Source of the DNA: a virus
Taxonomy: Duplodnaviria; Caudoviricetes
DNA length: 34,003 nt
Direction: 5' to 3' (one strand)
IMG/VR virus record: IMGVR_UViG_3300037419_001409
Location: 1 to 34,003 of that record
Part shown: positions 2,424-15,744 of the stretch, in pieces
How positions within the stretch are numbered: position 1 is the stretch's first letter
How the letters are laid out: each line of letters starts with the position of its first letter
The notes under the pieces: generated by a model
What the model was told of the DNA's origin: nothing
What the model saw: the letters and a program-made list of their open reading frames with translations, nothing else
Databases searched by the model: none
Made by a program: the position numbers and the translations under genes

Positions 2424-3286
2424 GAACGCTGAACAACGCCTGGACGGAAGCCGAAGACGCCCTGCTCAAGGCGAACTATCACCGGGGCTCTCGCTGGTGC
2501 TGTGACCGCCTGCCTGGACGCACACAGTCGGCCGTCAAGAAACGGGCTGCCGTCATCGGTGCCGCTCGGCCCGTCGCTGACGTGCATCACGAGTGGACGC
2601 CTCTGCTCGATGCACAGATCCGCCGCGCGTACCAAGAGGGCTTCGGTGCCCCCGCTGCCCTGGCTCGCAGCACGGGCATTCCGCCGAATTGCTTGAGCCG
2701 TCGCGCCGCTGCGCTGGGCCTCGGGGCTCGGCCCGTTCCCTTCAGCGCCGAGGAAGCGGAGTTTGTTGAGCGCCACCTTCATCTCAGCCGGAACCAGATC
2801 TCAAAGCTGATGGCGAAGCGCGGCTGGCATCGCTCAAAGCAGGCCATCCAGCGCTTTCTGCATGCACGCGGGATCGGGGGGATCGGCGACTACCTGTCCA
2901 TCCCGACGTTGGCCGCCTGCCTGGGCATGTCAGAGTTCTCGATACGGGGCAGCATCGCTCGCGGCGAACTGCTGGTGGAGCGGTCGGAAGGCGAGGAAGG
3001 GCGGATCGTCATCGCTCAGCCGGAAGTCGCGAGATGGATCATCCGGCACCCGCATCGGATCGACCTGCGCCGGGCGGAAGGCCCTTGGCTGATCGACCTC
3101 CTGGCTCGGTACGGCTCGCTCGGGCTGATCGATGAACGGGATCAGTGGCGTCGCATCCTGGCCCTGCACGAACTCGGCAAGAGCAACCAGGAGATCGCGG
3201 CCATTCTGGAGACGAAACCCAACATCGTCGCGAGCACGCTGTCTCAACGGCGGTCCAAGTCAGGCCAGCAAGAGGAGGCTGCGTGA
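2420..3286 (+). CDS. Multi-HTH DNA-binding protein with Myb/SANT-like repeats
   Basis: Repeats WTEAEDALL..PGRTQSAVKKRA, WTPLLDAQI, FSAEEAEFV; then LSIPTLAACLGMSE HTH and C-terminal GKSNQEIAAILE HTH. Confidence 0.7.
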   Translation: MRTLNNAWTEAEDALLKANYHRGSRWCCDRLPGRTQSAVKKRAAVIGAARPVADVHHEWTPLLDAQIRRAYQEGFGAPAALARSTGIPPNCLSRRAAALGLGARPVPFSAEEAEFVERHLHLSRNQISKLMAKRGWHRSKQAIQRFLHARGIGGIGDYLSIPTLAACLGMSEFSIRGSIARGELLVERSEGEEGRIVIAQPEVARWIIRHPHRIDLRRAEGPWLIDLLARYGSLGLIDERDQWRRILALHELGKSNQEIAAILETKPNIVASTLSQRRSKSGQQEEAA

Positions 3287-3516
3287 TGTACACCCTGAGA
3301 CCTGAGCCTTATCTTGAAGTGTCGATCTGGCCGCCCAAGATTATCTGCCGGCGCACCGTCTGGCACGCCTTCGGTCGCACCAGCCGATGGCTCAAGTACC
3401 TGCCATTCCCTCTCGCAAGTGACGTGTTCCTCGGCCGCGCGACGACCTTCGACGGCGCACGCAATCTCGGCAGAGGGTGGGATGAGCGGAACAAGCAGGA
3501 GGCGCCCCATGCCTGA
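3286..3516 (+). CDS. Small hypothetical protein, paralog of 499..711
   Basis: TGATG overlap; shares IWPP..RR.VWHAFGR.SR.LKYLP and DGARNLG.GW with 499..711. Confidence 0.7.
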   Translation: MYTLRPEPYLEVSIWPPKIICRRTVWHAFGRTSRWLKYLPFPLASDVFLGRATTFDGARNLGRGWDERNKQEAPHA

Positions 3517-4426: not shown

Positions 4427-4865
4427 GGTTTCTGTTCCCCGGTTGGATGAAATCGCGAATGACACGCCGTTGCGCCTTGAAGTGGCGGCTGCCCTCGCTT
4501 TTCCTGGCGGCGGCATGACGGTTAGCGGCCTCCGCAAGGAAGCCGCGCGCGGGCGCCTTGTCATCGAGCGCATCGCCGGCAGAGATTACACCACGTTGGC
4601 CGCCATAGCGAAGATGAGGGGGCAATGCCGCGTCCAGCCAAAGGGGCTCGTCTCTATCTCGTACCAGCCCGCCGAGACAAAGCTGGCCGCGTCACCCGAG
4701 CCGCCCGATGGGTCATCCGCGACGGCGACCGCATGCACCCCACAGGATGCGCTGCAAGCGAAGTTGCAGAAGCTCATCAAGCCTTCGCCAACTACCTCCG
4801 CGAAGCGCACCGGCCGACGCGCGGGCAACGTGGTATCGCTGAAATCCCGGTCGCAGATGTCCTGA
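4419..4865 (+). CDS. xis: Excisionase-like protein (start uncertain)
   Basis: DTPLRLEVAAALAFPGGGMTVSGLRKEAARGRLVIERIAGRDYTTLAAI, typical of rhizobial excisionases; directly upstream of and overlapping int. Confidence 0.8.
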   Translation: MSKVSVPRLDEIANDTPLRLEVAAALAFPGGGMTVSGLRKEAARGRLVIERIAGRDYTTLAAIAKMRGQCRVQPKGLVSISYQPAETKLAASPEPPDGSSATATACTPQDALQAKLQKLIKPSPTTSAKRTGRRAGNVVSLKSRSQMS

Positions 4866-5773
4866 ACATCTACGCCGACGATATCGTCTCACGGGATCCC
4901 GATGCCTCGCGCATCGCCCGGCGCATCGCCCGGCTGGCGGCATGGTGGGGCAATCGCACGCTCGCCCAGGTGACGGGCGCGACGTGCCGAGCCTATGCCG
5001 CATCAAGGCCGGGCCCAGGCGGCGCGCGGCGCGATCTGCAAGACCTGTCGGCCGCCATCGGACACCACCACCGCGAGGGCTACCATCGCGAGGAGATCAA
5101 GGTCTGGCTGCCGCCGAAGGGCAATGCCCGCGAGCGCTGGCTGACGCGATCCGAAGTCGCCAAGCTGGTGTGGACGTGCTGGCGGGCCCGTGAGGGTGGC
5201 GACCGGGAGGGCGAGGGCCGCTACACCATGCGCCACATCGCCCGGTTCATCCTCTTGGCCTACTCGACGGCGAGCCGGCCGGGCGCCGTGCTCACGGCGA
5301 GCTGGGAGGCGGCGTCGGGCCGGTCCTACCTCGACCTCGACCGGGGCATGTTCTACCGGCTGAAGGACGGTGGGCGGATCACCAACAAGCGCCAGCCGCC
5401 CGTGCCGCTGACCGACAAGATGCTTGCCCATCTGCGCCGCTGGCGTCGGCTTGGCGGATCCTACGCGGTGGAGTTCCGCGGCAAGCCAGTCGCCCGCATC
5501 AAAGTCGGGTTCGCCAGCGCCGTGAAGCTGGCCGGGCTCGGGGCTGGCGTGTCGCCGCACACGCTTCGGCATTCGGCCGTGACGCACATGCTGCTCGATG
5601 GCGTCGACCCGTGGCAGGCAGCCGGTTACGCGGGCATGAGCGAGGCCGTGATGAAACTGCACTATGCCCACCACCACCCCGATCACATGAGTGGCGCGAA
5701 AGCCTCGATGAGTGGGCGCAAGCGTTGGGCGACAGAAACGCTACAGATTGGCGTGAACCGAGCGCGAACATGA
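4625..5773 (+). CDS. int: Tyrosine recombinase / phage integrase
   Basis: Catalytic motifs TASR, TNKR, PHTLRHS and HYAHH; RERWLTRSE; followed by attP. Confidence 0.95.
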   Translation: MPRPAKGARLYLVPARRDKAGRVTRAARWVIRDGDRMHPTGCAASEVAEAHQAFANYLREAHRPTRGQRGIAEIPVADVLNIYADDIVSRDPDASRIARRIARLAAWWGNRTLAQVTGATCRAYAASRPGPGGARRDLQDLSAAIGHHHREGYHREEIKVWLPPKGNARERWLTRSEVAKLVWTCWRAREGGDREGEGRYTMRHIARFILLAYSTASRPGAVLTASWEAASGRSYLDLDRGMFYRLKDGGRITNKRQPPVPLTDKMLAHLRRWRRLGGSYAVEFRGKPVARIKVGFASAVKLAGLGAGVSPHTLRHSAVTHMLLDGVDPWQAAGYAGMSEAVMKLHYAHHHPDHMSGAKASMSGRKRWATETLQIGVNRART

Positions 5774-5947
5774 GCGCACAAACGCGAACGGTTGTCGTTG
5801 ATTTTATTGGCTTTTTCAGTAAAGCCGGACGTTATGAGCGGCCGGCTCTAACCATTGAGCTACGGGCCCGAAGCTTTATGCTTCAGTAGCTTAGCGCTGA
5901 TGCTGCCGGCCGGCGACAGGCTGGACGACAGAAACGGCGACAGAAAC
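5729..5947. other. attP: core AGCCGGACG-TTATGAG-CGGCCGGCT (5823-5847) flanked by arm-type repeats (G/A)CGACAGAAAC
   Basis: Inverted core arms around a 7-bp overlap equal to the tRNA anticodon loop. Arm repeats at 5729 and 5740 (degenerate) on the left, and 5913 (partial), 5925 and 5937 (12-bp period) on the right. Confidence 0.85.
5830..5869 (-). pseudogene. 5' half of tRNA(CAU), probably Ile2 (often annotated Met); attP identity block, not a complete tRNA
   Basis: Minus strand reads GGGCCCGTAGCTCAATGGTTAGAGCCGGCCGCTCATAACG (acceptor 5' strand, D arm, anticodon loop CTCATAA); no T arm or CCA follows. Confidence 0.85.
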
Positions 5948-5954
5948 CGCCTTT

Positions 5955-7591: not shown

Positions 7592-7653
7592 GGCGCTGTC
7601 TCCTCCGTTCAAACGAGCGTTCAACCGGATGAAACACCCCGCAGGAGGGAACG

Positions 7654-8073
7654 ATGAGCAGCGCCGAAATCGACAACATCCTCGACCTCCTCGACGCGTT
7701 CGCGGACCGGCGCGGCGGCGGGAGGGAGCAGGCGTGTTTCCATGCCGCGAAGATCATCCGCGAGCTTGAGGCCGAGAACGCCCGGCTGCGGAAGGACCGC
7801 CTGGATTGGGTTGGCGCGACCTTCCACGAAGAAGACCGGGTTGCGGAGCTTGAGGCCGAGAACGCCAAGCTGGCCGCCTTCGCCCGCGAGATCATCGAGC
7901 CCGCCTTTGATGGGCAAGATGTGGACGGCGCCACGATCCAGCGCGTGGCGCTCCACTACGGCCTGCTGGCGGAAAGCAAGTACGACCCGGAGAAGCACGG
8001 CTCGTCCTTCGCCGAGCCGGGCGATCAGTGGTTCACCTACGCGGGACCGCTCGCCCCGCCGAACGCACGATAA
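7654..8073 (+). CDS. Hypothetical phage protein with internal ELEAENA repeat
   Basis: AGGAGG RBS; ELEAENA coiled-coil motif occurs twice. Confidence 0.75.
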   Translation: MSSAEIDNILDLLDAFADRRGGGREQACFHAAKIIRELEAENARLRKDRLDWVGATFHEEDRVAELEAENAKLAAFAREIIEPAFDGQDVDGATIQRVALHYGLLAESKYDPEKHGSSFAEPGDQWFTYAGPLAPPNAR

Positions 8074-8093
8074 TGCGGCTTAGCTTGCGTTCG
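8060..8093. repeat. dif/Xer-like inverted repeat CGAACGCACGATAA-TGCGGC-TTAGCTTGCGTTCG
   Basis: 14-6-14 imperfect palindrome with a TAA-N6-TTA centre; the TAA is the stop codon of the upstream gene. Confidence 0.5.
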
Positions 8094-8126
8094 GAATGAC
8101 CCGCACCCGACCCTGGAGAACCAGAG

Positions 8127-9241: not shown

Positions 9242-9475
9242 ATGGACTGGCATCCCATGGATACCGCCCCGAAGGACGGGACGGCGTTCCTCGCCTACTG
9301 GCTGCGCGAGCATACGGGCGGCGAGCGATACGAGGCCGAGCAGCCCTACGTGGTCGCGCACTATTACCGCGGGCGCATCTACCCATCATGGATCGGCGAG
9401 GACGTGCCGACCCATTGGCAACCGCTTCCCTCACCGCCGTCCGACAAAACGGACGCGCCGGCTGCGTCGGAATGA
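9242..9475 (+). CDS. DUF551-like protein
   Basis: WHPMDTAPKDGT...PTHWQPLPSPP signature; AGGAG RBS. Confidence 0.85.
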   Translation: MDWHPMDTAPKDGTAFLAYWLREHTGGERYEAEQPYVVAHYYRGRIYPSWIGEDVPTHWQPLPSPPSDKTDAPAASE

Positions 9476-11080: not shown

Positions 11081-11263
11081 ATGGACGAACCTGCACAGCC
11101 CAGGCCAGCAACATACGTGAGCGACCTGATCTATGAGGGTGTACGGCAGAAGTCACCCGAGGAGGCCACCGCCCATATCGAGCGGTTGCGGCGAGCCTAT
11201 GCGCGCCGCGGGCAGTCATTCCCGAGGCCCCCGTCCGACAAAACGGACGCGCCGGTCAAGTAG
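11081..11263 (+). CDS. Small hypothetical protein
   Basis: AGGAG RBS; bounded by family-1 sites; ends PPSDKTDAP like 9242..9475. Confidence 0.6.
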   Translation: MDEPAQPRPATYVSDLIYEGVRQKSPEEATAHIERLRRAYARRGQSFPRPPSDKTDAPVK

Positions 11264-11374
11264 GGAAAGCGGCCGTTTTCCAGACATCGCTCCGGGGTGG
11301 CTCCGGAGCCGATCAAAACGCCCCTGATCGTGTCGGGAATGCGTGTCAACTATTCAATCGTCGGAGAAACGGTG

Positions 11375-11767
11375 ATGCCTGATAATCCCGACACGGCGCT
11401 GCCGGCCGACATCGCGGCGGCGATTGAGGTGTTTCGGTGTGCGGCGCGCGATGAGACGCGATACCCCGACGGCGCGAATATGAGCGCGACCGCATCGGCC
11501 CGCGCCGCCCTCACCGCCGCTATCTTCGCCCGCCTCGCCGCCGCCGAGGCGAAGCTGGCGCACTGCGAAAAGACCATGGCGCCGCTGAGCAACGACGGCC
11601 AAGCCGTTTGGGTGGATGGCACCGGGCTTGTCCCGCTCGACTACTCGCAGGGCCGCGACCTCGCCGCCGCCCTCGCCCGCGCGGAGCGGCTGGAGGCCGA
11701 GCGAGACGCCGCTATCGAGCGCATCATCAGCCTGGAAAAGCGCATCGACGCGATGATGCGGCTCTGA
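11375..11767 (+). CDS. Hypothetical Ala-rich coiled-coil phage protein
   Basis: GGAGA RBS before MPDNPDTALP. Confidence 0.7.
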   Translation: MPDNPDTALPADIAAAIEVFRCAARDETRYPDGANMSATASARAALTAAIFARLAAAEAKLAHCEKTMAPLSNDGQAVWVDGTGLVPLDYSQGRDLAAALARAERLEAERDAAIERIISLEKRIDAMMRL

Positions 11768-11814
11768 ACATGGCGGAGACGGTAGAACTCGAACGGTTTA
11801 GCAAGGGGAATACA

Positions 11815-12030
11815 ATGAGCGACGAAGGAACCGAGTGGTTTTGGCGCATCGTTGACGCCAACGGCTTAGGCGACGTCCCGAGCGACGAGGGGCCAGCCCT
11901 TCGGCTGCTGTGCGAGCGTGCGGCCAAGGCGCAATGGCTTAAGGCCGAGAACGCGCGGCTACAGGCCGAGCTAGAGACAGCCCGGCACACCATCGCGGCA
12001 ATGGCTGGCCACATCAACGCCCCCGCCTGA
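11815..12030 (+). CDS. Small hypothetical protein (alternative in-frame start at 11770)
   Basis: AAGGGG RBS; coiled-coil LKAENARLQAELE. Confidence 0.65.
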   Translation: MSDEGTEWFWRIVDANGLGDVPSDEGPALRLLCERAAKAQWLKAENARLQAELETARHTIAAMAGHINAPA

Positions 12031-12632
12031 TGGCGGATGGGATTACGGCCATTTCGGCAAGTAATTCAAGAGCGGGGACTGTTATGAAGATTGAGACGGC
12101 AGGATTGCTAACAATAGCCGACGCATTGGAGCAAGAAGGAAGGCGTCTCGCTGCCGGGTGTATTCGAGAGGCCGCAGCCGAAATCTCCGCCCTACGTGCC
12201 GCGCAAGTTGGGGCCGGTGATGGGGCCGAGAATGAGCCGGGCGCCACGCTCGACGGGCGACTGAAAGCCGCCGGCATGTTTACGGTCACGGAGATGATGG
12301 GACAAACGCCCCTTAGCCGGTGGCAGGTTCATGCCGGAATGAGCGGCCTTGAAGCCTTCGGGGAATGGCTCGACCGCAAGACCGCGGAATACACCCGCAT
12401 GCGGGCCGGCTATGAACTCGGCGACAAGGACAAGTCAGACGAGCTTTACGAGTGGGTGCTCGCCCATTCTGCCGCCTTCGCCACCATCCGCGCGAACTTC
12501 ATAGCGGCAAGGGATCGCCAAGCGGCGGTCAATGTTGGGGCCCGAGTTGGGGCCGGCGAGGATCAAGCAACGCCGTCCGCATGATACTTCAACGGGTTAG
12601 CGAACATTTGCGAATGTAGCAATCTCCGCCAT
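12030..12632. mobile_element. Putative non-autonomous attL-cargo-attR mini-element 1
   Basis: Core at 12030; arm pairs at 12207/12219 and 12534/12546; TGATACTTCAA box at 12582; core right arm at 12625. Confidence 0.55.
12084..12584 (+). CDS. Hypothetical phage protein (alternative start at 12030)
   Basis: ORF spans mini-element 1; RLKAAGM.TV.EMM...PL..W..HAGM domain. Confidence 0.7.
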   Translation: MKIETAGLLTIADALEQEGRRLAAGCIREAAAEISALRAAQVGAGDGAENEPGATLDGRLKAAGMFTVTEMMGQTPLSRWQVHAGMSGLEAFGEWLDRKTAEYTRMRAGYELGDKDKSDELYEWVLAHSAAFATIRANFIAARDRQAAVNVGARVGAGEDQATPSA

Positions 12633-12653
12633 ACCGAAGGCCAGGGGTTAACG

Positions 12654-12905
12654 ATGACCGGCACAGCTCAGATCAGCCTCGAAACGGGGCGCAAGTTTCC
12701 ATACGATCAAGGCGAGCGTCGCCGGCCACCGAAGGCGAAGGATTGGGCAGAGGCCGCCGCCCGTGGCGTGCTGGCCGATCTCTGCGACCGCCGCGGGATC
12801 AAGTGGGCGCTGCAAGACGACGAGATCACCGACGACGTGCGCCGGGAGATCGTCGCCTCGCTCGCTGCAATCATCCGCCTCGCACACGAACAGGCGTCGG
12901 CCTGA
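12654..12905 (+). CDS. Conserved small phage protein (AARGVLADLCDRRGIKW family)
   Basis: ORF between two family-2 sites; AGGGG RBS. Confidence 0.75.
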   Translation: MTGTAQISLETGRKFPYDQGERRRPPKAKDWAEAAARGVLADLCDRRGIKWALQDDEITDDVRREIVASLAAIIRLAHEQASA

Positions 12906-12907
12906 GT

Positions 12908-13422
12908 ATGGCGGACGGGGCCACGGAAATTTCGGAAGGTATTGCGATGAGCGAAACAGTAATCACGGACGTGCTTCCGGGTCTTCGTCAGCTTCACGAG
13001 GAATTGCTCGCCGAAGGAAAACTAGAGCGCAGCGTAGACGTTATGTTCGCCATCCTCGAACTTGAGCGACTGTCCGCCAAACCCGTTGGGGTGAATGTTG
13101 GGGCGGGATGGAGGCCAATTGAGACGGCGCCGAAGGATGGCAGCCGCATTCTGATCTTCAACCCGAAGAGTGACCGCCATCCTGTTTGCGAGGTGGCATG
13201 GGCTTACGTCTATGAGGGCGGCCCCGGCTACTGGTCCACGCCTCACGGCATCAGCGGTCGAGGCTATACGATCTTACCGGAAGCTCCAACGCATTGGATG
13301 CCGCTTCCCGAACCGCCATCAGATGTTGGGGTAAATGTTGGGGTAAGCGCCCCATCAGTAGAGCCCCCGCCTGATACTTCAAAGGCTTAGGGCATAGTTT
13401 GCTCGGACGGGGCCACAGACAT
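12908..13422. mobile_element. Putative non-autonomous attL-cargo-attR mini-element 2
   Basis: Both ends share CGGACGGGGCCAC; arm pairs at 13085/13097 and 13325/13337; TGATACTTCAA box at 13372. Confidence 0.65.
12947..13390 (+). CDS. DUF551-domain fusion protein (alternative start at 12908)
   Basis: WRPIETAPKDGSRIL...PTHWMPLPEPP domain, flanked on both sides by VGVNVG. Confidence 0.8.
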   Translation: MSETVITDVLPGLRQLHEELLAEGKLERSVDVMFAILELERLSAKPVGVNVGAGWRPIETAPKDGSRILIFNPKSDRHPVCEVAWAYVYEGGPGYWSTPHGISGRGYTILPEAPTHWMPLPEPPSDVGVNVGVSAPSVEPPPDTSKA

Positions 13423-13442
13423 CAGGGAGATGAGGAAGGTCG

Positions 13443-14048
13443 ATGGACGCGGTAACGCCTAAGAAGTGGACCAAGCCGACAACAAGGCCAGAGACCGCGT
13501 CCGCTCGCTTCCATGCGAAGTGGATCGGTGAGCCCAATAGTGGCTGTTGGCTTTGGCTCGGCGGCCTGTCTGCTAACAAGTATGGCTCAATGCATGATGG
13601 GGAGCGGATGTGTGGCGCGCATCACTTCTCGTATCGGCTCCATCACGGGCTAATCCCGAAGGGCATGTTCGTTTGCCACTCCTGTGACACGCCAATTTGC
13701 GTGAACCCGGATCACCTGTTCCTCGACACACCATGCGGGAACCAAGCTGACATGGTGAAGAAGGGGCGAGCACGCGCGGGCAATCCAGAATGGTGGCATT
13801 CGGAGGAGCTGCGGAAGAAGGTTCAGCAGGACCCGCGCCCTTACCGCGTGATCGCTGAAGAGTACGGCTTGAAGTTCAACACGGTGAAGGCATTCAAGTC
13901 GGCCGAACGTAAGGGCGATTGGCGCCGGAACCTACGCAGCATCCGGATCGAGACTGCCCGGCTGCGAGCGGCGCTTCAGCAGATCGCTGGCATGACGCAG
14001 GCGGACGAGATGGCCGAGGTGGCCAAGCGCGCGCTGAGCGGCGACTAG
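13443..14048 (+). CDS. HNH endonuclease (HNH_3-like) with C-terminal HTH
   Basis: SGCWLWLG...YG...AHHFSY..HHG.IP.GMFVCHSCDTPICVNPDHL......N.ADMVKKGR. Confidence 0.9.
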   Translation: MDAVTPKKWTKPTTRPETASARFHAKWIGEPNSGCWLWLGGLSANKYGSMHDGERMCGAHHFSYRLHHGLIPKGMFVCHSCDTPICVNPDHLFLDTPCGNQADMVKKGRARAGNPEWWHSEELRKKVQQDPRPYRVIAEEYGLKFNTVKAFKSAERKGDWRRNLRSIRIETARLRAALQQIAGMTQADEMAEVAKRALSGD

Positions 14049-14082
14049 TGGCGGACAGGGGAGAACCCATACCAGGGAGAGA

Positions 14083-14334
14083 ATGATGCAAACGGAGCTT
14101 AAGCCGGCGCAGGTCGATGCCGCGTACCGGATGTTCTACGGCGAAGGCAAGAACCTCGGCGAGATCACGAAGGAACTCGGGTGCGGGATCTATGACCTGT
14201 CGCCCTGGCTCACGGCGCCAGCGCTGCGGATTGGGCGCGAGGCGCGAGAAGACGCCTCCGAACGGATCAAGATCCTTTGTGCGGAGATCAAGCGCCTAGA
14301 AGATGCAAACGACCGCCTGACCTCGCGGCCGTAA
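14083..14334 (+). CDS. Small HTH-like hypothetical protein
   Basis: GGGAGA RBS; EGKNLGEITKELGCGIYDLSPW. Confidence 0.65.
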   Translation: MMQTELKPAQVDAAYRMFYGEGKNLGEITKELGCGIYDLSPWLTAPALRIGREAREDASERIKILCAEIKRLEDANDRLTSRP

Positions 14335-14388
14335 GGGTATGGCGGACCGGGGCTCCGCCATGCGCCAAGCTAAGCAGTTGACGCGCAC

Positions 14389-14421
14389 GAAAAAGCCCGC
14401 CTCGGCTGGGCCGGGCGGGCT
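14389..14421 (-). terminator. Intrinsic terminator (possibly bidirectional)
   Basis: AAAAAGCCCGCC...GGCGGGCT hairpin with a U-tract on the minus strand; near-duplicate at 15760. Confidence 0.7.
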
Positions 14422-14495
14422 CTGGCAGACACGGGCGCGAGCCAGAAGGGTCTCCGCCCCTGGCCGAGCACCCCGCCTCACGCTAGCTCGGCGGC

Positions 14496-14723
14496 ATGTC
14501 TGAACGCCCGCCCAAGCGCCACATTGAAGCCCTCCGCGCCTGCCGCGTCTGCCGTGGCGGGATGCGCTACGAAGCCCACCTGAGGTCAATGCTGGCCCTC
14601 CGGGAACTGGGGTACGTGGAGGACAGGCCGCTCCGGAGCAGACCGAGAGAGGTACGGTGGTTCCTGACACCGGCCGGGCGGGATCTGCTTGAGGCGTTGG
14701 GAACAGGCGAGCCGGAGGATTGA
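14496..14723 (+). CDS. Small winged-helix-like hypothetical protein
   Basis: L.ELGYVE...WFLTPAGRDLL; no SD sequence, with GCTAGCT shortly upstream (possibly leaderless). Confidence 0.6.
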   Translation: MSERPPKRHIEALRACRVCRGGMRYEAHLRSMLALRELGYVEDRPLRSRPREVRWFLTPAGRDLLEALGTGEPED

Positions 14724-14859: not shown

Positions 14860-15744
14860 ATGACCGACAGCCGAACCGGCATCGAGCGCACCAAAGACGC
14901 ATGGGCTGTCATCAGCCCGGAGCGATGCCTCTGGAACTACCCTTACACCAATGAGCTCGTCAGCAAGCGCGCGGGTGATCCAGCCAGGGGCGACTGGTAT
15001 CAGCAGGTCGGCGTACGACACCTCGCCGGCCGGCAGCCCGGCCGCGCTCTGTCAATCGGCTGCGGCATCGGATCGTGGGACCGCGCCTTCTACAAAGAGG
15101 GCTGGTTTCGCGAAGCCGTCTGCACCGACATCTCGGACGGCGCCGTTGCCACGGCGGCCTCTGTCGCGGAGGCTGAGGGCCTGCCGCTCCGCTACATCGC
15201 GGCGGACCTCAACAGGGGGCTGCCGGAGGGCGCGGAAGGCCCGTTCGATCTGATCTATGCGGTGGCCGCCCTGCACCACATCGACGCCCTGGAAAGTCTG
15301 CTGTCCGCCTGCCATGACCGCCTGACCGCGGACGGCCTGCTGATCTTTCAGGAGTATTGCGGGCCGTCCCGGTTTCAGTGGAAGCCGAAGACGCTTGCCC
15401 TGGCCAACGCCATCCTCGACCTGCTGCCGCCCGAGCTGAAAGGCCCCATCGAGCGGATCAAGCGCCCGCCCTATTCTGAGTTCGTCGAATACGACCCGAG
15501 CGAGAGCGTGCGCAGCGCCGAGATCATGGACCTGACCGCGATGTTTTTCGACATCGTCGAGGTTCAGGACATCGGTTTTACTCTGACGCAACCGCTGCTC
15601 AACCCGATCCTGCGCCACTTCGACGATGCCAATCCGCTGCACGGCGCCATCGCGAAGCTGATCTTCCTGTTTGAGGAGACGCTGATTGACGAGGGCGTGA
15701 TCGAGGCGGACACGAAGGTCGTGGTCGCGCGCAAGCGGAGGTAG
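14860..15744 (+). CDS. Class I SAM-dependent methyltransferase (moron)
   Basis: ALSIGCGIG motif I, TDISDGAV, ADLN, FDLIYAVAALHHI, L..DGLLIF.EY.GPSRFQW. Confidence 0.9.
   Translation: MTDSRTGIERTKDAWAVISPERCLWNYPYTNELVSKRAGDPARGDWYQQVGVRHLAGRQPGRALSIGCGIGSWDRAFYKEGWFREAVCTDISDGAVATAASVAEAEGLPLRYIAADLNRGLPEGAEGPFDLIYAVAALHHIDALESLLSACHDRLTADGLLIFQEYCGPSRFQWKPKTLALANAILDLLPPELKGPIERIKRPPYSEFVEYDPSESVRSAEIMDLTAMFFDIVEVQDIGFTLTQPLLNPILRHFDDANPLHGAIAKLIFLFEETLIDEGVIEADTKVVVARKRR

Follow-up and report, generated by a model that had tools for sequence, protein, structure and literature searches.

The two elements between 12028 and 13424 of the window (the whole 34,003-nucleotide stretch of DNA analysed here, from a soil phage) are best read, with moderate confidence, as one-gene cassettes without an integrase that are moved in trans by the P4/CP4-type integrase of islands located at Methylobacterium tRNA-Ser genes. 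The observations behind this reading are the anatomy of the cassettes, their spacing, filled and empty slots in related phages, islands with matching ends, and the absence of such an integrase from six virus records, the window included.

Genomic setting

The window, a linear virus record of 34 kb, has a completeness of 61%. A tyrosine integrase gene is found at 4625–5773, with recombination genes upstream and tail genes downstream, and the two elements lie within an early-gene array, a same-strand run of small genes at 7–14.4 kb. The phage's own integrase has an intact attP at about 5720–5950, with GCGACAGAAAC arm repeats on both sides of the core. This 38-base core matches a Methylobacterium tRNA region – of five Methylobacterium-genus genomes searched, three contain it exactly and two contain it with two mismatches – and therefore the host of the phage is probably Methylobacterium. 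The window contains no tRNA, an Rfam scan gave no family above chance, and BLAST of 11700–14400 against annotated phages and plasmids returned short domain matches only.

Two other features of the window are a diverged 214-nt duplication in the early recombination region (492–705 and 3276–3489, 72% alike) and, at the end of the array, a 294-aa gene (14860–15744) that has no PHROG family and lies between two terminator-like hairpins. Putative methyltransferase genes are found at a similar place in two related loci, L001 and L008.

A ladder of core sites

The sequence-only reading had described the elements as twins with matching attachment-site geometry, and all of its coordinates held on recheck. 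GTTGGGG arm pairs begin at four positions (12207, 12534, 13085 and 13325); in the one at 12207 the second half reads GATGGGG, with one mismatch. The left arm pair begins 177 bp from the left core in both elements (12030 and 12908), the IHF-like boxes start 36 bp (12582) and 35 bp (13372) past the start of the last repeat, and the outer core arm (12625 and 13415) starts 43 bp past the box in both. The arm-pair pattern had four matches in the window, compared to a mean of 0.00 and a maximum of 0 in 100 shuffles, and the box pattern had two (0.00 expected, 100 shuffles). The core motif TGGCGGA is weak evidence on its own, with 16 copies relative to a mean of 8.9, and two of 100 shuffles reaching 16.

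The cores were read as two arms flanking a 7-bp overlap. Element 2 has the same sequence at both ends, as had been claimed, with CGGACGGGGCCAC at 12912 and 13404 and an overlap-to-overlap unit of 492 bp. The ends of element 1 are indeed unlike each other, since the overlaps TGGGATT (12038) and AGCAATC (12618) do not match. Three further core sites, at 11778, 14056 and 14347, have no arm pairs (Table 1). The shared scaffold is thus real, but the elements are members of a longer ladder rather than twins.

Each element is a single ORF that starts past the left core and stops inside the box, and both arm pairs are translated as VGxxVG within it. The conserved box past the left core was considered as an inverted IHF site, but this was not supported, as no IHF consensus is present there. 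Comparison of the cassettes suggests that this box is also a crossover point for swaps of N-terminal segments.

Table 1. Core sites, arm pairs, boxes and genes along the ladder (positions in the window)
Feature	Position	Strand	Remarks
Armless core-like site, first rung of ladder; overlap GACGGTA 11778–11784	11768..11794	+	Same overlap and rank in L007, L009, L023, L028
Inter-slot gene, 71 aa	11815..12030	+	3' part related to gene preceding L001 cassette and to ORF tail in L023
Element 1 left core, slot a; overlap TGGGATT 12038–12044	12028..12054	+	
Conserved box past left core, TTCGGCAAGTA(A/T)T type	12053..12065	+	No IHF consensus
Element 1 ORF, 166 aa, no Pfam/PHROG family	12084..12584	+	Spans both arm pairs, ends in box
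Element 1 left arm pair, GGGGCC flavour	12207..12225	+	169 bp from overlap start
Element 1 right arm pair	12534..12552	+	84 bp before right overlap
Element 1 IHF-like box	12582..12600	+	
Element 1 right core, slot-b type; overlap AGCAATC 12618–12624; outer arm TCCGCCATAC	12608..12634	+	
Inter-slot gene, 83 aa, no family	12654..12905	+	
Element 2 left core, slot c; overlap CGGGGCC 12916–12922	12906..12932	+	
Element 2 ORF, 147 aa; DUF551 between two arm-encoded VGVNVG motifs	12947..13390	+	
Element 2 left arm pair, GGGGT flavour	13085..13103	+	169 bp from overlap start
Element 2 right arm pair	13325..13343	+	83 bp before right overlap
Element 2 IHF-like box	13372..13390	+	TCAA at +54 from arm start, equal to islands
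Element 2 right core; overlap CGGGGCC 13408–13414	13398..13424	+	
Inter-slot HNH endonuclease gene	13443..14048	+	
Armless core-like site; overlap CAGGGGA 14056–14062	14046..14072	+	Same site in L009, L023
Inter-slot gene, 83 aa, no family	14083..14334	+	
Terminal core, near-perfect inverted arms; overlap CCGGGGC 14347–14353	14337..14381	+	Followed by inverted IHF-like box

The left overlap of element 1 is that of slot a and its arm-to-box stretch is like slot-a ends; its right overlap and the bases before the right core are like slot b. This mosaic probably arose by a deletion that joined slots a and b: neighbouring units would have recombined at their boxes, which would account for the mismatched overlaps, and the fused element would no longer be able to move. 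L023 has a comparable hybrid, from slot b to slot c, and L009c differs by two bases.

Filled slots, empty slots and other cargo in related phages

Scans by pattern and by protein located the scaffold in six contigs, five from IMG/VR (L001, L007, L009, L023 and L028) and one from Methylobacterium oryzisoli (L008). With the window these are seven phage or prophage loci, in which there are 14 complete cassettes and one lone left end. Of the 15 left ends, 12 have 169 bp between overlap and arm pair, two have 170 bp and one has 168 bp, whereas in all 14 right ends the arm pair lies 83–85 bp before the overlap. Cargo varies among the cassettes, with arm-to-arm distances of 129–327 bp that are a multiple of three in 14 of 14. 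The left segments are of about 12 types, with middles mostly 25–50% alike that align almost gap-free. A ribosome-binding site and start codon follow every core. Among 95 homologues of the element 2 protein, the VGxxVG motif occurs twice in four, of which two are from L009 and two are new.

Copies with other cargo, which the sequence-only reading had proposed to look for, are present in all six of these contigs. Its alternative of an old tandem gene duplication does not account for the scaffold, as the units are slot-specific and the left segments differ to the extent given above at a fixed length. The label "MITE-like" holds as a loose analogy only, because the units are coding and bounded by att sites.

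The overlaps at the two ends are identical in 11 of the 14 complete cassettes and mismatched in three. The matched cassettes use five overlaps (TGGGATT, AGCGATC, CGGGGCC, GGCGGTG and GGGGGCA), and slots a, b and c keep a constant order wherever they co-occur. The empty sites sought by the sequence-only reading are present for three overlap types, as lone armless sites with CGGGGCC (slot c) in L028, AGCGATC (slot b) in L001 and TGGGATT (slot a) in L023. At each of them the outer left arm meets the outer right arm at the overlap, which is what precise excision, or a target that was never filled, would give. The lone sites are in other phages and are flanked by genes other than those of the window, hence they are not isogenic alleles of it.

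For element 2, the expected empty site has its counterpart in the CGGGGCC site of L028, but no circle junction or isogenic empty allele was found in contigs of three sequencing runs (contigs only, 71–84% read), a result that neither shows nor excludes excision since contigs drop rare forms. The probable source run covers the cassette region at flat depth, without a circle or empty-site joint. A joint in run X2 that "goes back 440" was considered as a circle and rejected, as the tandem slots b and c of L009 match its loose ends and it is a tandem pair of an L009-like phage. Runs X2 and X3 contain short parts only and were left out as evidence of habitat.

The strict right-end pattern had one match in genome contigs, one among 401 family genomes (G001 itself) and none in metagenomes; the left-core pattern had none in 146 Methylobacterium-genus genomes; and a geometry-only metagenome scan found a second arm pair with a box in 0 of 113 loci, among the matches listed from 9 of 64 parts. 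A scan yielding six loci contained one duplicate (L005, of L001), one real locus (L007) and four chance matches to Thr/Pro repeats, and L193 was likewise dropped as a chance match.

In L008 the cassette array is separated from an HNH gene, which is related to that of the window, by an antisense P4-like integrase whose arms are different (minus strand, 5000–3680).

Other inter-gene site families

A second family of palindromic sites lies between the upstream small genes of the window (8631, 9207, 9466, 10696, 11040 and 11260–11372), ending in a three-part copy at 11260–11372. ORFs such as the DUF551-like gene near 9244–9475 extend into these sites. Similar three-part sites were found in 10 of 146 Methylobacterium-genus genomes; the 12 loci fetched contain no tRNA, and none has a convincing tyrosine integrase in its vicinity. 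We take them to resemble serine-resolvase res sites, and a small resolvase is encoded by two related complete phages. Conserved, partly palindromic motifs are also found between genes in the window (7600–7650 and 8066–8110), in L007 (590–630) and on the minus strand of L028 (near 6820 and 7410), and their rank is unchanged in related phages. A further motif family, of GTCAGGAAA repeats, is found in L008. These motifs and repeats are possibly further look-alikes of recombination sites.

Parent islands at Methylobacterium tRNA-Ser genes

The arm pair alone had 52 matches in 34 of 146 Methylobacterium-genus genomes, compared to 16 for the reversed control. Among the 51 matches examined, 32 are island ends with att geometry, distributed over 20 genomes. 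At the tRNA-Ser side, the IHF-like box is at about +54 from the arm pair and the overlap at +83, with an arm-to-overlap distance of 83 bp in 14 of 18 ends (range 80–84). At the far end, the overlap lies 126 bp before the arms in 11 of 14 ends, 127 bp in two and 138 bp in one, and the integrase gene starts about 22–37 bp past the arm start. One genome (G512) has a tandem junction of 83+126 bp. Repeats are present at -33, -23 and -13 before both arm pairs, with an IHF site at +59. A parent of the P4 type, to which the sequence-only reading had pointed, was thereby found, with the same arms, box and short-arm spacing.

Three domains were identified in the island integrase (Arm-DNA-bind_3, Phage_int_M and Phage_integrase), and among its nearest relatives of solved structure is the arm domain of a CP4-like integrase. 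The island arms are of two flavours, GGGGT and GGGGCC, and the N-terminal part of the integrase is of two types; these correspond to elements 2 and 1, respectively. In four islands scanned (102 ORFs), a D5 primase or AAA_25 gene lies behind the integrase; two have an HTH_17 excisionase-like gene, one has DUF5681 and one has a phosphorothioate-type gene set. From this content we read them as satellite-like or defence islands.

A tRNA-Ser island (L199-L200, G515:C32:28000-50700) has DndB, PAPS-reductase, cysteine-desulfurase-like and PLD-helicase genes, a set that is likely a phosphorothioate defence system. In another locus (L013, G003:C1, about 44200–44400), a phage has its own unrelated integrase and an attP whose overlap equals a tRNA-Ser 3' overlap found in hosts. 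This attP has the same TGGCGGA-N7-TCCGCCA core but different arms, indicating that several integrase families share the core.

Cassettes compared to islands, and the search for a helper

Cassettes and islands of the P4/CP4 type have in common the arm pairs, the IHF-like box, the core with a 7-bp overlap and the short arm of 83 bp (83–85 bp in cassettes, 80–84 in islands). They differ in the long arm, which is 168–170 bp in cassettes and 126–138 bp in islands; the cassette arm is 43 bp longer, or about four helical turns. No island with a long arm of 150–180 bp was found above background in 146 genomes, and none had 169 bp. Cassettes keep one of the excisionase-like repeats, at -22, in 9 of 15 left ends, with no regular block at the right ends, and they have the conserved box past the left core instead of the islands' IHF site at +59. 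The inner core arm of the islands, TCCGCCATAC, is the outer right arm in the phage, and in slots a and b the inner core arms are very unlike the island core. Cassettes are 0.4–0.6 kb long, found in phages and away from tRNA genes, and have no integrase or excisionase gene, whereas the islands are 18–38 kb and carry their own integrase. No slot overlap equals the tRNA-Ser 3' overlap in the six genomes compared.

The integrase promoter region of the islands overlies their long arm, and the island repeats resemble the TorI sites GTTCG, GATCG and GTCCG of KplE1 (PMC2951348). Because of this likeness, we infer that the island repeats bind excisionase. The KplE1 integrase, which is related to the island integrase, requires its excisionase for excision (PMC2951348).

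No protein with the PF13356 domain was found in the window or in five related virus records, of which four have a completeness of 90% or more. Two complete related records had no PF00589 match, and the cassette ORFs have no integrase domain. The phage's own integrase was considered as the helper and rejected, as its attP has other arms and relatives carry other integrases or none.

Proposed mechanism and alternatives

In the proposed mechanism, the island integrase would act when the phage infects an island-bearing Methylobacterium, inserting and excising cassettes in trans. Excision would produce a circle of 392–492 bp whose junction is a complete attP-like site, and the empty core left in the phage would be nearly palindromic. 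Re-entry of the circle would be confined to sites that share its 7-bp overlap, so that each slot would be separately addressed and host tRNA-Ser sites would be avoided. The mechanism uses the rules of lambda-type intasomes – overlap identity, helical phasing and the IHF consensus. With 43 bp more in the long arm, arm and core would stay in phase, and the re-phased arm would replace bending by excisionase and IHF. Homologous exchange would also cross over at the shared scaffolds, and in this way neighbouring units would be fused and N-terminal segments and cargo domains reshuffled without loss of frame. Against the borrowed integrase are the lack of a circle or isogenic empty allele in the contigs, the location of the empty sites in other phages, the 169-bp arm compared to 126 bp, the lost repeats and IHF site together with the excisionase requirement of the KplE1 integrase, the divergent inner core arms of slots a and b, and the mismatched overlaps in 3 of 14 cassettes. 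The fixed length could also be due in part to protein constraint on an N-terminal segment of 41–42 residues.

In an alternative that we consider unlikely, the motifs are relic att scars: islands or CIME-like derivatives integrated and were then trimmed, and the motifs now only serve homologous reshuffling of mosaic Ea22-like genes whose length is held by the protein. Several observations fit such scars – N-terminal segments and DUF551 cargo have moved between slots (L001c and L007a are 85% alike, L009b and L023a 95%), arm-to-arm distances preserve the reading frame, the three mismatched or hybrid cases could have come from neighbour exchange or point change, contigs of three runs had no circles, and mosaic Ea22 genes with a portable DUF551 are known (PMC10834534). 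However, the box-to-overlap and arm-to-overlap distances, which are non-coding, equal the island values in 14 of 14 ends, while relics would lose arms, box and spacing, and the 43-bp shift has one uniform value. The empty sites also break exactly in the 7-bp overlap, which offers little homology.

A role as integrase decoy is improbable as well. Copies on the replicating phage would bind the island integrase or trap abortive synapses with mismatched overlaps, blunting island excision, and cassette mobility would be a side effect. The satellite or defence look of the islands (D5 primase/AAA_25, HTH_17, DUF5681 and the phosphorothioate-type set) is in keeping with such a target. The phage has copies of two arm flavours (L008 has three), in which the short-arm geometry is preserved and the excisionase-like repeats are dropped, and its overlaps match no tRNA-Ser 3' end in six genomes. 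A decoy needs neither matched overlaps at both ends (11 of 14), nor precise empty sites, nor an ORF with swappable cargo. The decoy reading can be compatible with cassettes that borrow the integrase.

It is very improbable that the motifs act in the expression of early genes, as regulator boxes or sites of RNA processing, with an incidental att likeness, for although every core precedes a ribosome-binding site and start codon, the arms, box and 83-bp spacing match the tRNA-Ser island ends base by base, 11200–14600 has no promoter-like or terminator-like match, and the Rfam scan gave no family above chance.

Comparison with known systems

The cassettes resemble CIMEs and microCIMEs, which are bounded by att sites, have no recombinase and are derived from or dependent on integrative elements; microCIMEs are 130–220 bp (PMC7563491). 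Like a CIME, a cassette keeps attL and attR and has no recombination or transfer genes, with overlaps matched in 11 of 14 cases and a single cargo ORF. CIMEs are described as decayed chromosomal elements that are moved in cis by accretion at one shared att core (PMC7563491). The cassettes differ in being located in phages, in having no adjacent cognate helper in the six virus records, in having a different overlap in each slot with other genes between the slots, and in keeping a strict geometry around an intact ORF. They are not in tandem with an integrative element in cis; the P4-like integrase near the L008 array has other arm sequences.

Integron cassettes and CALINs are likewise promoterless arrays of single genes that have no integrase in cis, can be mobilised in trans and vary in content among relatives (PMC11389934). 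A consensus scan of 11200–14600 had no sigma-70-like match, and no IntI-like gene is annotated in the window. The attC sites of integrons fold as single-strand hairpins and are recombined by IntI. In contrast, the sites of the phage cassettes match island att ends and are probably double-stranded att sites of lambda type with arms rather than attC, their slot order is set by overlaps, and the putative helper is an island integrase rather than IntI. On this comparison, they would work like a CALIN or hitcher element (PMC11389934) and appear to be built like a CIME (PMC7563491).

Two other systems share the phage setting. The mobile elements MPME1 and MPME2 of mycobacteriophages are also ultra-small (439 bp), with filled and empty alleles in phage genomes, but they have terminal inverted repeats, are almost identical in sequence, insert at many sites and come with a 6-bp addition (PMC3029335), unlike the arm/IHF att anatomy, varied cargo and fixed slots of the cassettes. 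The Ea22/Ead exo-xis genes of lambdoid phages are small mosaic early genes with a portable DUF551 (PMC10834534); the parts of that paper available name no att-like DNA joints, while the cassette joints are arm sites at a fixed distance from the core. MITEs are non-coding, have terminal inverted repeats and are moved by a transposase, unlike the cassettes, each of which has an ORF, direct repeats of the overlap and directly oriented arm pairs. No description of att-bounded, overlap-addressed phage cassettes was found in the literature, in which subscription journals were poorly covered.

Significance

A broader possibility, put forward tentatively, is that Methylobacterium phages built an integron-like array from the recombination sites of their competitors, with orthogonal 7-bp overlaps, a satellite-like island integrase and an arm lengthened to work without excisionase. 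The content of the array would respond to the satellite and may jam it, and the upstream res-like sites would work likewise with a serine resolvase.

If the cassettes do borrow the island integrase, they would provide a site-specific route for the long-noted turnover of small early phage genes, and the usual direction of hitch-hiking would be reversed, with phage DNA using the integrase of a satellite-like island. The reading names an enzyme–substrate pair that can be tested – the island integrase, the 492-bp cassette and the empty slot. The cassettes also offer minimal att sites from nature in which the overlaps are orthogonal and the arm is re-phased, and these would be useful for the study of intasome geometry in the lambda family and for multi-slot integration tools.
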